Below are positions 28,768 through 33,592 of a DNA stretch of 64,000 nucleotides, piece by piece (positions within the stretch are counted from its first letter, which is position 1; every line of letters starts with the position of its first letter). Source of the stretch: Cladosporium halotolerans (taxonomy: Eukaryota); the NCBI RefSeq assembly GCF_011745625.1, contig NW_027191457.1:372001-436000 (forward strand). Direction: 5' to 3'. The position numbers were made by a program, and so were the translations under genes. The notes beneath the pieces were generated by a model. That model saw only the letters and a program-made list of their open reading frames with translations. It did not search any database and was not told where the DNA came from.

Positions 28768-30446
28768 CTACAGGACATCCCGTCGCCCAGCAGGTCCACC
28801 AGAATCCGGCTCACCACGATTCTGCTCCTCCTCCCTCGGCCTCGTGAGTCCCGCCTCAGGATTGAAACTGACTCCTCTGCCACGCAAGCCCGGCCTCGCA
28901 AGTGGCTCGCCGCCCACAGCCGCGCCAGGGTATATCGGCGGCGCGGGCATGTCAAAGGTGCCGGGATATGAGCGGTAAGGAGGCAAGCCTTCGCCGGGAC
29001 TAGGTACTCCGCTGGCGAGCGGGAACACTCCAGGTGCAACTCCTGATGGCCTAGTCGCTGGCATGGGTGGAGGTGAGCCTACGAGCGGTGTTCCGACAGG
29101 TGTTAGGATGCGTTCGGGTGTTGCGGCTGCTGCTGGGACTGGAATTGGCCGGTGTAGTGGGCCGTTTTGCGGTGATATTGGAGAGGCATACTGAGGCGGC
29201 GGCGGCGGTGCTGCGGTCGTAGCGTTTGGTATTGATGCTGCGGCCGGCGCTGCACCGAAGCGAACATTATCGTCGAAGGAGCCGAACACCGCTCCACCTG
29301 CACCGCTCCCACCGCCATTATCGGGGCGAGGCCGGTGCGGTCCTCTTGGTGGTCCTCTAGGCGAACGCAAACCTACTCTTTGTCAGCGCAGGATCATCTA
29401 ATCACTTCAACAGCAGGAATTACGTACTCACCATCGCCGCCTCTGTCGCCGAACAGGTCGTCCAAGTCATCGTACCTGCCTCGACGCCGTCGTCGACCAC
29501 CACCAAACCCACCACCTCGACCTCTCCCCCACTCAAGCTCATCGTCCTCATCGTCCCATTCAAGATTCCTCATACCTCTTCTCCCGCGACTCGGCCTCCT
29601 CATACCACCGCCCATACCCCCAACTTCAGCCATCATACGAGGATCAACCCCTCCACCACCACCAGCCATCATAGGATGCATGCCCTGCACAGCCCCACCA
29701 CTAGCCATAGCAAAAGGATTCATCGCCGGCTGCATCCCGCCCATCCCCCCACCAAAAGGACCTATCCCCGCCGCAGGTCCCGCTCCCATCCCCGTCCCCA
29801 TCCCCATCCCCCCGGCCCCCACCAAACCCATCTGTTGCAACGCAATCAACTTCGCCAGCTCCGGCACCAGCGGCTGCAAATGGCTCAGCAGCCTCTGTTC
29901 GAACCTCTTCTCCCTCAACTCCGCCGGCGACCCGAACAGACAATCGCTCATAGTCTGCACCTGGTCGAACATCTCTTTCACGCGCTCATTCTGCCTCCTG
30001 GCAGCTTCTACGTCCGCGCCGCCGAACATCCACGGCGCCCCAGCTCCAGCTCCAGCTCCAGTCCCAGCTCCAGCCCCAGAGCCAGGACCAGGGTACCCAG
30101 CAAACCCCTGCACCTCCGCCCACGGCACCTCCGTGATCCCCCTCTGCTGCGCCATCAGCTGCCCGAGCACGCGGCTCAGCACATCGTAGTCTTTGGGGCG
30201 CCAGGGCTGCGCCGCCCAAGCGGGCGGCATGACGCCCGCGGCGGCGAGGTCGGCGGGGTCGCGGTAGGACTCTCGCGGCGGGCCGCCGGTGTTGTTGCGC
30301 TCGACGTAGACGTACTTGCTGCGGGAGTGGTGGGGCCCGCGGCAGAAACAGTGCGGCGGCGAGCCGCCGTGGCAGAGGCGGAAGCAGTCGGCCGGCAGGT
30401 AGAGTTGGGTGTAGGCGTGGGAGGGGAGGGAGGGGGAGATGCCCAT
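28768..30446 (-). CDS. Gly/Met/Pro-rich low-complexity hypothetical protein; intron 29373-29431
   Basis: Two long ORFs joined in frame by GTGAGT..CTGAC..TAG; Cys/His-rich N-terminus (CFRLCH..HCFC..HH). Confidence 0.65.
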
Positions 30447-31236
30447 TTCTCGTTTTGGGGTGGATTTTGGGGGAGGGGATGAGGGGAGGTCAGGACATTT
30501 GGCGGGAGGGGCGGGGAGGAGGAATTTGGGGTGGTTGTGGGTAGAGGGTTTGGGCGAGAGAGGGAATTAGAGCTGGGGGCGTGCCCGTGGGGTGTGATGC
30601 TTTGCTTTTCGTCTTGGGGCGCGGAGGGGTGAAAAGAGTCGGTGAAAAGGCGAGGAGGCTGTCAGAGTCACACGCCAAGGCGTTTTGTGAGAGAACAAAC
30701 ATTTTGCTTTCGAGGCAGCGACCATTTGCGAAACAAGGCAGCCAGCTGGGTAAGCCGAAGCGAGGCTTGAGAACCAACTTGCTTGCCATCGCCTCCTGTT
30801 TTTCACCGCTTGAAGTGGTTGATGCTGGTCTGTTGTCACAAAGTATAGTGCCTCTTGTTTCGTGCCGGTCTCTCGAACAGGAACCTGTTCGTGTGGAACA
30901 GTACATGTTGGTACCCGTAGGCCCCAGGCTTCCGGTTGGGCTCGTCGGCCATACCCAAGGGCTTTGCGGCGGGGCTATGTGCACCGAGTGATGAGATCAA
31001 TGTGTAAAAAGAGTAAAAATGCAGGTCTAAAAATGCAGAAATCAATTTGGTGGTATCAGACCGGGAAACACCGGAAGTCGTTCTCTCATGCGCCGCCTTC
31101 GCCGCGCTCGTAATAAAACAGAAAAGACGTCTTCAGACTGTCGAAACGCCATGTTCCAGTGCCGCATGCTAGCGCCTGGATGCAATGCTGGGACCTTTTC
31201 TCACGCTATCCACCCAGGCAGAAGATTCGTCCTCAC

Positions 31237-32132
31237 TCAGTACTTGTGCTTGTATTCCGGAAGAGTAGACCAAACATGCTGACAGGCGCAGCACACGAAG
31301 AAAATAGCCTGTGCTCGATGTGAATAATTGGTTGGGCGCGAAGGTCTCACCAGGAGGGCGAGCTTACCATTCCTGTTTCAGCTGTTCGCTGCTGGGATTG
31401 GAAGTAGACGGCGTCTCTGCCGTGACACTTGCTGCACGGCTCAGCGGTGTGCGGGAGCTGTTCAAACCAATCTGTCAGCACACACTGCTGATCAGACAGA
31501 CACCGAGGTATCCCAAAGTCATGAATTTCCTCCTCTTGCCTCCCTCATGACGCAGCGGTGGACATGGACCTCTCCCTCTGCTCAGCCTTGACGAGCTCTT
31601 CCTCCTGTTGCCCATTCTGCGCCCGATCAGGATCGTCGACCTCGAGCGCGAGGTGGCCGTCTGAGGGTTGGCCGCAGAAAGGGCATAGGATCTCCTGGCC
31701 GCAAAGCGTGCACATTTCGGGGATGTCGTCGCCATCGCTGTCCATGTCCTCCGTGTGATCCTCCATGACTGAGTCGGTGGCGTGATGGTGGTGATGATGT
31801 TGGTGGTGCTCGGAGTCACTAACCGTAGGATCCTGAGCGACGTCTTCGACGTTGCCGGCAGTCTCAGCGATTTGTTCTTGGAGCGCGTTGCGGTAGATGC
31901 ATGCGGCGGTCGCGGGCTCGCTGTACTGGCACGAGCGGCAGGCGAACATGAGAAGGTTACTTGTGGGGTCCTCTTTGGGGTAGAGCATGTTCGAGCTGCG
32001 AATGTGTTAGTGCGAGAGAGTTCGACAAGTCGTGGAGATTTCTCACCATTCGCGACAGAAGCGGAAGCTGATCTTCTTGGAGTCACCCTGCGGTTGCTCG
32101 GCGGCGGCGTCGGTCTCCATGTACTCGGCCAT
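31237..32132 (-). CDS. RPB9: RNA polymerase II subunit Rpb9; exons 32132-32047, 31995-31824, 31457-31368, 31308-31237 (139 aa)
   Basis: FRFCRECSNMLYPKED..FACRSC..DPT|LPHTAEPCSKCHGRDAVYFQSQQRTAETGM|AIFFVCCACQHVW. Both zinc ribbons are recovered using canonical splice sites. Confidence 0.95.
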
Positions 32133-32597
32133 GGCGGCAAGATATGTGGAAGTTGAGCAGTGGTGGTAGCGACTGGTATGGAGCGCGCAGGTGTGTAGTG
32201 TCGGGCTGTGTCTTTTGCGAGGGCGACAGTGGTGTATGCTGTAAGAAAGGCGGGCGGTCTTTCTAGCGCGGCGCGGATTAGAGTTGGCGGGAGTGGCTGC
32301 CGAGCGGCGGCGCCTGGCAATCCCCGAGCGCGCAGGGCTCGAGCGCGGCGACCCCACCACTCCCACCACCTAGCAACGGGCCTCCGCGCCCTCACGTGCT
32401 CCTCTGTTCTCGTGCCCTCGTCCAACGTTGCCGGCCCCGTTTGTCAGCGCAACGCCGCCAGCTACAGCACAGAACATCCTCTCCCACCACCGCTCCCACT
32501 AGTCCAGCGCCTCTGTGGAGAAGCCGACGGTCCTCAAATTGCTCGTCCAGCCGCCCTGTCACACCACGTGAATCCATATTGCGGAGATCCAGCAACA

Positions 32598-33592
32598 ATG
32601 GTGAGTCTCCCGCGCCCGCAGAATCTGGGGAAAGCTGCTGCTGCGGCGGCTGCTGGGAGAGACGGGCTCGCTAACACGCCTCGCAGGCCACTGGACTTCC
32701 TCCTGGTTGGGTATGGCAAACAATTAATTTGCGCAGACGATCATGATTGCTGTGCCACGCCGGCGAGATCGCCTTTTCTGACACGTCTCACAGGAGGTTC
32801 GCCACTCCAACAGCAAGAACCTGCCCTACTACTTCAACCCGAGCACCAAGGAGTCACGGTGGGAGCCTCCCGAGGGCACTGATAGCGAGAGCCTCAAGCA
32901 CTACATGGGCCAGTACCACACTGCTCAGTTAGGCCGTGACGGCGCCCTCGCCCAGCAAGGCCTCGAAGGTAAAATCAGATGTGCCCATTTGCTCGTCAAG
33001 CACCGTGATTCGCGCCGTGCATCCTCGTGGCGCGAGGCCCAGATCACTCGCTCGAAGGAGGAGGCTCGTGGCATCATCGAGAACTACGAGAACAAGATCA
33101 AGAGTGGGTCGACCAGCTTGGGCGACCTTGCTACGACGGAAAGCGACTGCAGCTCGGCTCGTAAGCGCGGTGACTTGTAAGTGAACCCGTCATCCCGGGT
33201 CTCGTTCTATCTCTACCCGCGTGCGATCCGAGAGCGACGCCCTTATTGCCGGCTGGGGATTGCACACTGAGCTCGTGCGACACGCGACAGCCGCTAACGG
33301 AGACCAGGGGATTTTTTGGGCAAGGCGACATGCAGAAGGAGTTCGAGGAGGCCTCGTTCGCGCTGAAGCCGGGTGAGATTTCACCTGTCATCGAGACGGC
33401 ATCTGGGCTGCATTTGATTGAAAGGTATGTCAGCGCCACCCGCGCCACACGCAATGCCGTTTGTTTCTTTTTGGTGGCTTTCGCATTCCGCTCGCTGCTT
33501 TCGGCCGGGCTTCGCGGAACATGCAGGTGTCCGCGCTGTTACAAGGATCGTTACGCTGACACGTCTCTTTGTCTGTCTGCAGGCTCGAGTGA
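32598..33592 (+). CDS. ESS1: Parvulin-type peptidyl-prolyl isomerase with WW domain (Ess1/Pin1); 5 exons, first coding exon is only the ATG
   Basis: M|ATGLPPGW|EVRHSNSKNLPYYFN..SRWEPP; HLLVKHRDSRRASSWR; SDCSSARKRGDL|GFFGQGDMQKEFE..SGLHLIER|LE*. Confidence 0.95.

Follow-up and report, generated by a model that had tools for sequence, protein, structure and literature searches.

Two yeast genes are the closest described counterparts of the locus discussed here. According to PMC7491326, which cites Juneau 2009 and Gowda 2016, the unspliced mRNA of PTC7 adds a transmembrane helix to the protein, and the spliced and unspliced mRNAs of FES1 give proteins that differ in C-terminus and in localisation. 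The gene that concerns us is RPB9 of the fungus Cladosporium halotolerans (NCBI RefSeq assembly GCF_011745625.1). It was analysed within a stretch of 64,000 nucleotides (nt) of contig NW_027191457.1 (positions 372,001 to 436,000 of the forward strand), which we call the window and whose own positions are used throughout; the gene consists of four exons on the minus strand, from about 32132 to 31237. Its intron 2 may be removed or kept, and what is read when it is kept is very probably a second C-terminus that codes for protein, is under selection and owes its existence to intron retention, as the comparison of related sequences leads us to propose.

Rpb9 is a core subunit of RNA polymerase II (Pol II) and is involved in fidelity, in the selection of start sites, in cleavage dependent on TFIIS and in transcription-coupled repair. 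In the window, splicing of intron 2 leaves a coding sequence of 420 nt, which specifies a canonical Rpb9 of 139 amino acids (aa). Reading through the intron donor adds 92 codons to the open frame, for a total of 178 aa, and these codons comprise a CxxC-x5-CxxC motif, the first Cys codon of which begins at 31712 and the fourth of which ends at 31674. An initial annotation of this DNA had already claimed that intron 2, when retained, supplies a whole second C-terminus equipped with a Cys4 motif of its own. Frame, stop and motif are as it had them, and its coordinates, the 366 nt of the intron, the sizes of the two products, the number of codons and the spacing of the Cys pairs all proved correct.

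The read-through frame among relatives

An open frame is, by itself, weak evidence for coding. Computed from base composition, the probability that this stretch be open is 0.06 in the window and 0.003-0.11 in relatives; no stop interrupts its +1 frame either, in the window or in most relatives, and one frame of the opposite strand is often open in relatives, with 3-4 stops in every frame of that strand in the window. It is the comparative evidence which is decisive: the frame is conserved, its insertions and deletions leave it intact, and its pN/pS (defined below) indicates purifying selection that is specific to it.

A scan of metagenome contigs provided 19 RPB9 loci, confirmed by tblastn at 41-88% identity. 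The donor is read through in frame in all 19, and the full Cys4 motif is present in 18 (L014 breaks off after the first CxxC, while L003 and L015 run off their contig before any stop). Eight of these loci lack the pattern used to search for the alternative module and make an unbiased sample, as they could have come to light through the exon-2 pattern only. Exon 3 follows in each of the 12 loci that have sufficient downstream DNA, intron 2 being 263-384 nt long, and in all 16 complete loci the alternative stop is placed 65-124 nt upstream of the acceptor, just before the branch-point motif. The donors of the window and of the 19 loci are of the forms GTTAGT, GTCAGT, GTGGGT, GTAGGT and GTTGGT; none of the 20 is GTAAGT or GTGAGT. 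We are thus dealing with a retained intron that is in frame and conserved as coding among relatives, in the manner of PTC7 and FES1.

The pattern of substitutions was established with nine sequences of the Cladosporium group. In the extension, the ungapped sites that vary number 10, 11 and 46 out of 77 at codon positions 1, 2 and 3, respectively, with corresponding values of 2, 1 and 29 out of 57 in exon 2; in the intron tail past the alternative stop, 29 of 76 ungapped sites vary. The ratio of the proportions of nonsynonymous and synonymous differences (pN/pS) is 0.10-0.25 in the read-through frame, as against 1.2-6.7 in the +1 and +2 frames, and the NG86 ratio of the corresponding rates (dN/dS) is 0.05-0.20 for the extension, at a dS of 0.45-1.5 (11 pairs). 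A ratio below one had been put forward as a check in the initial annotation, and it is indeed found well below one in the read-through frame, and in that frame only. A gene of the opposite strand was considered as a possible source of this conservation and ruled out: the changes fall at third positions in the minus-strand frame, and the opposite-strand frames of the window are each interrupted by the 3-4 stops just mentioned. The GC content at the three codon positions is 0.70/0.38/0.73 in the extension, to be compared with 0.55/0.46/0.73 in the spliced coding sequence.

Breadth and exclusivity of the module

A search with the extension alone retrieved 25 proteins, two of which are NCBI gene models of the read-through form, from Cladosporium allicinum and C. 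fusiforme. Profile searches gave 384 matches at E<=1e-3 and 364 at E<=1e-10, the best 120 of each being listed. The named proteins tabulated from these searches (n=35) include Cladosporium, Pseudocercospora, Cercospora, Septoria, Lecanosticta, Hortaea, Meristemomyces, Parastagonospora, Pyrenophora, Alternaria, Curvularia, Ascochyta, Plenodomus, Lophium, Elsinoe, Venturia, Verruconis, Phyllosticta, Coniosporium, Eremomyces, Trichodelitschia and others. We take the genera of all 35 to be Dothideomycetes, the lineage having been checked for four species. They would presumably represent Cladosporiales, Mycosphaerellales, Pleosporales, Mytilinidiales, Myriangiales, Venturiales, Botryosphaeriales, Eremomycetales and other orders. 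The expectation that orthologous introns keep both the frame and the Cys residues is therefore borne out far beyond the genus, with the frame open at 19 of 19 loci and the four Cys present in 287 of 295 related proteins; as for its extension to Pezizomycotina as a whole, the named relatives are Dothideomycetes, and nothing here shows the feature across the larger group. Many public models named RPB9 are of the read-through form, with 168-183 aa in Capnodiales-type fungi and 147-173 aa in Pleosporales, and one public record, from Ascochyta lentis, bears the name 'rpb9, variant 2'.

The eight of the 295 proteins that do not display four Cys comprise five shortened fragments, the assembly chimera P0022 and two sequences in which another residue stands in for one of the Cys. 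In this set the T after the first Cys and the G after the second are found in 100% of cases, and the I in 97%. A spacer of 6-69 codons precedes the core, always in frame with exon 2. The His tract to which the initial annotation had drawn attention is real and present here, but it is lineage-specific, varies in length and is not a conserved part of the module. Tails, too, are specific to lineages: a ..KAEQRER.. segment, predicted helical, is characteristic of Cladosporium and Capnodiales-type fungi, and Pleosporales have acidic tails.

A profile of the extension only, run against 1.84 billion representative proteins, yielded 65 matches: 54 with the end of RPB9 exon 2 upstream, one with a divergent N-terminal part and 10 short fragments. 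Not one of the 65 places the module in any other protein context. Judging from these sequences, the module is exclusive to RPB9.

Three observations made in the course of these searches deserve mention. Protein P0247 combines a normal Cys4 module with an Rpb9 N-terminal part that is strongly divergent, acidic and partly degenerate; it could represent a paralogue that has diverged or an ORF (open reading frame) that was wrongly assembled. In P0022, an unrelated N-terminal part is joined to the last ~50 residues of a Cladosporium extension, the joined part beginning within the Cys4 motif; a chimera produced during assembly is the most likely explanation, and the protein was left out of the alignments. 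Finally, a distant group of read-through proteins (P0254, P0257, P0264, P0266, P0272, P0279, P0284, P0287 and P0289-P0293) has a second motif after the module, similar to ..SDPxSDDDxGEY, and could mark a spread beyond the named Dothideomycetes.

Spliced and retained RNA

Contigs of four sequencing runs (X1, X2, X3 and X8), four pieces of which are not listed, were aligned to positions 31000-32400. The runs are 95-99% alike to the window and come from close relatives, not necessarily from the same strain. X1 and X2 are uninterrupted over all introns; they look like DNA and are uninformative on expression. X3 and X8 belong to two different studies and were recognised as derived from complementary DNA (cDNA) by their spliced joints alone, not by their record. 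Since their contigs show exactly the three predicted joints, 31307/31367 (cut one place further right), 31457/31824 and 31995/32047, these two runs contain cDNA and the gene model is right. The RNA contigs reach through the 3' untranslated region (UTR) to 31035.

One gene is represented there by two RNA forms, and the retained one bears the extension fused to the N-terminal ribbon and linker of Rpb9. At the intron-2 junction, X3 displays a bubble with two paths: a spliced contig of 59 nt at a depth of 258.8, and an unspliced contig of 425 nt at a depth of 151.5, which spans 31429-31853 and thereby comprises the whole of intron 2 together with 30 nt of exon on one side and 29 nt on the other. 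The depth of exon 2 in this run, 435.6, is about that of the spliced and unspliced depths added. In X8 the spliced depth is 53.4, and an unspliced contig (31541-31853) has a depth of 20.5. The form that retains intron 2 makes up ~37% of the junction depth in X3 and ~28% in X8, for a spliced to unspliced ratio of about 2:1. Among the listed contigs of X3 and X8 none is unspliced at intron 1 or at intron 3 (with the four pieces above not listed), which argues against plain contamination by genomic DNA. Coexistence of intron-retaining and spliced RNAs, as in PTC7 and FES1, is hence observed in two studies. The retained transcripts that had been anticipated are found beside the spliced form, and the signs that were to speak against the proposal (stops, frameshifts, loss of the CxxC pairs, absence of retained transcripts) were not encountered.

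Polyadenylation within the intron could also produce the longer frame. The retained contig of X3 enters exon 3; that of X8 ends at 31541, 4 nt beyond the alternative stop and without a loose end, and neither supports nor refutes this process. No AATAAA was seen in the intron tail when its sequence was read by eye. X8 also has loose ends at the exon borders 31996 and 31309, which stem from contigs with 6-10 differences. These contigs resemble spliced RPB9 transcripts from further related species present in X8; canonical splicing is therefore seen in more than one relative.

Domains and predicted structure

The Pfam family PF02150 (Zn_ribbon_RPB9) recognises exon 2 plus extension as a member (E 2.9e-07, 30.7 bits for a cut-off of 25.2), and PF01096 (Zn_ribbon_TFIIS) recognises exon 3 translated alone (E 7e-08, 32.6 bits for a cut-off of 21), so that the spliced form belongs to both. 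PF01096 is absent from the extension in a Pfam scan at E<=10, and the 178-aa read-through form is consequently not a canonical Rpb9 with two ribbons. The best Pfam match of the extension is the rubredoxin-like PF21349 (RUBY_RBDX), at E 0.0058, its 16.5 bits being below the cut-off of 26.5. A PDB sequence profile search with the extension gave nothing significant, the best match being eS27 (E 0.084) on a CPxCG knuckle.

The homologue of C. allicinum (P0003) was modelled with AlphaFold2 from 60 aligned sequences. Its N-terminal ribbon has a per-residue confidence (pLDDT) of ~90, the knuckle and core reach 67-83, and a terminal helix (residues 149-170) reaches 80-90, the linker and spacer being disordered. 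Foldseek relates this model to the Rpb9 chains of Pol II structures, with 54% identity over 65 columns to the yeast chains, via the N-terminal part only; longer alignments have a root-mean-square deviation >=16 Å and are meaningless. In the ESM Atlas we found only Ascomycota clusters named RPB9, with structure matches at TM<=0.25.

A candidate mechanism

How might such a gene work? With intron 2 spliced, its product would be canonical Rpb9, made of the N-terminal ribbon, the linker and the TFIIS-type C-terminal ribbon. With intron 2 retained, the frame would run from ..DPT into the extension, first through an acidic or His-rich spacer, then into the Cys4 module CTxCGxEIxCxxC; an acidic segment, L-E-x-x-D, would come next, then the lineage-specific tail (a predicted helix here), up to a stop located just upstream of the branch point. 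The long intron 2 (263-384 nt, against ~50-60 nt) and its conserved non-optimal donors may favour retention. Once exported and translated, the retained mRNA would yield an Rpb9 of 178 aa with its C-terminal ribbon swapped.

The N-terminal ribbon and linker supply much of the contact of Rpb9 with Pol II, at the Rpb2 lobe and the Rpb1 jaw. Because of this, the isoform would still be expected to dock there. The functions of the C-terminal ribbon comprise responsiveness to TFIIS, fidelity and degradation of Rpb1 after damage. A polymerase that carried the isoform would be deprived of these functions and would harbour a new zinc module, acidic in character, in the vicinity of the jaw and funnel. 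Part of the Pol II pool would then differ in elongation, in proofreading or in its behaviour towards damage, and the size of this part would be set by the splice ratio of intron 2. We put forward this Pol II variant tentatively, as a possibility that may well turn out to be wrong. It is a somewhat more doubtful step to imagine that Dothideomycetes at large run two kinds of Pol II, with the TFIIS-type ribbon exchanged for the Cys4 module in about a third of RPB9 messages, with this module regulating access of TFIIS, proofreading, choice of start sites or damage-induced turnover of Rpb1, and with the splice ratio acting as a switch for fidelity or stress responses.

Weighing the evidence

Several features of the data weigh against a functional second C-terminus. 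At the level of the protein, the extension has no above-threshold match to a known domain, whether in Pfam or in the PDB sequence profile search; binding of zinc is presumed from the Cys pattern; the P0003 model is of middling confidence, with a mean pLDDT of 68.7 and a predicted template-modelling score (pTM) of 0.31; and docking on Pol II is argued from general structural knowledge. As to conservation, one of the four Cys is missing from P0096 and from P0119, divergence at large distance is more rapid in the extension than in exon 2 (pN of 0.17-0.41 against 0.07-0.20, still lower than pS), and most protein matches were found via both parts of the molecule, so that their in-frame state is partly a matter of ascertainment. 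At the level of RNA, contigs cannot separate nuclear pre-mRNA from polyadenylated, exported mRNA; contig depth is a coarse measure, and the runs were only guessed to be RNA, though their spliced joints prove that cDNA is present. Finally, 177 nt separate the alternative stop from the exon 3/exon 4 junction downstream of it, and the stop is followed by a long 3' UTR, for which reason the retained mRNA could be a target of nonsense-mediated decay (NMD).

This last point leads to the most serious of the other explanations, namely that retention of intron 2 is a form of regulated unproductive splicing that lowers canonical Rpb9, by autoregulation, nuclear detention or NMD, the peptide having no function. 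The unusual length of the intron would fit (263-384 nt in all lineages and 366 nt here, compared with 51 and 59 nt for the two other introns of the gene), and so would the absence of GTAAGT and GTGAGT from all 20 donors, the substantial retention seen in the RNA contigs and the stop placed ahead of an exon junction. Yet a purely regulatory intron needs no open frame, and this one remains open despite spacer indels of 6-69 codons, with changes concentrated at third codon positions of the read-through frame only and with a four-Cys motif of ~30 residues that is nearly invariant across the class. NMD-coupled splicing accounts for the position of the stop, not for a peptide under purifying selection, and we consider it unlikely that regulation is all there is to the intron. 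The two readings are compatible at any rate: retention may both set the dose of Rpb9 and make the isoform. Chance, by comparison, has practically no place left. An open frame in a GC-rich, acidic, low-complexity intron is no great surprise, given the probabilities reported above, the stop-free +1 frame and the open frames often met on the opposite strand of relatives, but this view is refuted by conservation across species, by the frame-specific pN/pS, by dN/dS and by the invariant Cys.

The module might also reach the protein in another guise. A donor further downstream within intron 2 could join it in frame to exon 3 as an internal insertion, the stop-terminated form being a by-product. Such an arrangement would explain P0270 (218 aa), in which a single frame comprises the module and a complete Zn_ribbon_TFIIS (E 2.8e-13), as well as an ESM Atlas cluster of 98 RPB9 members, with a representative of 217 aa, where PF02150 is found on 99% and PF01096 on 65%. 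It would be very unlikely as a general explanation: both parts occur together in 1 of 295 proteins, the stop just before the branch point is kept in 16 of 16 complete loci, and the contigs of relatives, though they drop rare variants, reveal nothing but the canonical joint and wholly unspliced RNA. In the window, the in-frame GT triplets after the motif start GTCGAC and GTCAAG only, both poor donors; an in-frame donor inside intron 2 was accordingly ruled out there, with no such joint in the contigs and no plausible donor. In P0270 an acidic run is joined directly to ..LPR... In some lineage the module may nonetheless be an internal insertion, through a downstream donor or through loss of the stop. 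Less credible still is a separate small protein, begun at an internal start codon on the retained or on an independent transcript and unfused to the N-terminal part of Rpb9. Internal Met codons do precede the motif here (..DSVMED.., ..PEMC..), and four database ORFs (P0024, P0250, P0252 and P0265) start inside the extension, several short ORFs of this kind looking like prokaryote-style calls made from the GTG of the donor. An independent ORF, however, would not need the frame of exon 2, whereas all eight loci found by the exon-2 pattern alone read through with no stop before the motif or the end of the contig, and the stretch after the donor varies in length without a stop or a frameshift in any locus. 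A C-terminus made by retention of the intron, and fused to the N-terminal part of Rpb9, thus stays the reading that we prefer.

Gene model and neighbourhood

The features of the gene are collected in Table 1.

Table 1. Exons, introns and intron-2 segments of RPB9 in the window
Feature	Position	Strand	Remarks
RPB9 exon 1	32047..32132	-	start ATG 32132-32130; bears first CxxC of N-terminal zinc ribbon; joint 31995/32047 in X3 and X8 contigs
Intron 1	31996..32046	-	51 nt, GTGAGA..CTAAC..CAG; skipped in X3 and X8 contigs
Exon 2	31824..31995	-	remainder of N-terminal Rpb9 zinc ribbon and linker, ends ..DVAQDPT; Pfam PF02150 match
Intron 2	31458..31823	-	366 nt, GTTAGT..CTGAC..CAG; removed (canonical Rpb9) or retained (alternative isoform); joint 31457/31824
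Alternative coding extension	31548..31823	-	92 codons, in frame with exon 2, then stop TGA 31547-31545
Variable spacer	31713..31823	-	37 codons here, His tract and acidic residues; 6-69 codons in relatives, in frame
Conserved core module	31632..31721	-	P-x-x-C-T-[ML]-C-G-x-[ED]-I-x-C-x-x-C-[GE]..G..L-E-x-x-D; Cys4 motif 31674-31712
C-terminal segment	31560..31625	-	..EEELVKAEQRER.. motif, predicted helix; coordinates mapped by alignment
Non-coding intron tail	31458..31544	-	87 nt; branch-point-like CTGAC 31478-31474, acceptor CAG
Exon 3	31368..31457	-	first part of canonical C-terminal TFIIS-type zinc ribbon; Pfam PF01096 match
Intron 3	31309..31367	-	59 nt; joint in X3 and X8
Exon 4	31237..31308	-	end of canonical zinc ribbon, stop TGA 31239-31237

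On the plus strand, positions 32782-33180 code for two domains, WW (E 4.4e-07) and, after it, a PPIC-type rotamase (E 5.9e-06), the frame continuing beyond. By its domains, this divergent neighbour of RPB9 is a Pin1/Ess1-like prolyl isomerase. In yeast, the prolyl isomerase of the Ess1 type acts on the C-terminal domain of Pol II. The two genes are arranged head to head with ~650 bp between them, and a common promoter region is possible. On the other side, the minus strand has an open frame of 390 aa (29397-30566), rich in Gly, Met and Arg, with GMG repeats and an RGG-like run at its C-terminal end; it has no Pfam match at E<=1.

Significance

Literature searches, with subscription journals and supplements outside their reach, returned no paper on an alternative Rpb9 isoform or on retention of RPB9 introns in fungi. 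The initial annotation knew of no description either; the sequence itself was already public, in read-through RPB9 gene models that had gone unremarked. If true, an isoform selected throughout a class would be a rare example of splicing-based diversification of a core polymerase subunit in eukaryotes. There is also a practical side to the question: with public RPB9 models of the read-through form, deprived of the TFIIS-type ribbon, comparative work misreads the canonical protein. The locus further adds a Cys4 module of ~30 residues without family assignment. Dothideomycetes include many major crop pathogens.

Comparison with known systems

With respect to canonical Rpb9 and its relatives A12.2 and C11 (PF02150 plus PF01096), the gene has an ordinary N-terminal ribbon and linker, and its spliced form has the ordinary TFIIS-type ribbon. 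The alternative isoform differs in being devoid of PF01096, the CxxC-x5-CxxC spacing being too short for a ribbon of the TFIIS type. Two close CxxC(G) knuckles are what the module has in common with rubredoxin-like knuckle pairs (RUBY_RBDX), and with a match below the cut-off this is a resemblance of pattern only.

Variants and regulators of polymerase subunits are known in several organisms: NRPB9a/b and the subunits of Pol IV/V in plants, the isoforms of POLR2J (RPB11) in humans, the inhibitor TFS4 in archaea, and Gdown1/POLR2M. They resemble the present case in their idea, a polymerase being diversified or regulated through an alternative small subunit or a TFIIS-like factor. Most of them arose by gene duplication, whereas RPB9 would derive its variant from one and the same gene, by retention of an intron. 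No sequence relation between the extension and these proteins was found, TFS4 appearing only as a Foldseek match at a probability of 0.30, which is not evidence.

The likeness is closest with PTC7 and FES1, as described in PMC7491326: one gene makes, or in the case of RPB9 would make, two proteins by removing an intron or not, and the intron that is kept preserves the reading frame and is shared by related species. The lineages differ, Dothideomycetes on one side and Saccharomycotina on the other, and the RPB9 case is known from sequence and RNA contigs. The main difference, however, is in the nature of the gene and of the change: RPB9 codes for a core subunit of Pol II, and its retained intron would swap a whole zinc ribbon for a different Cys4 module.

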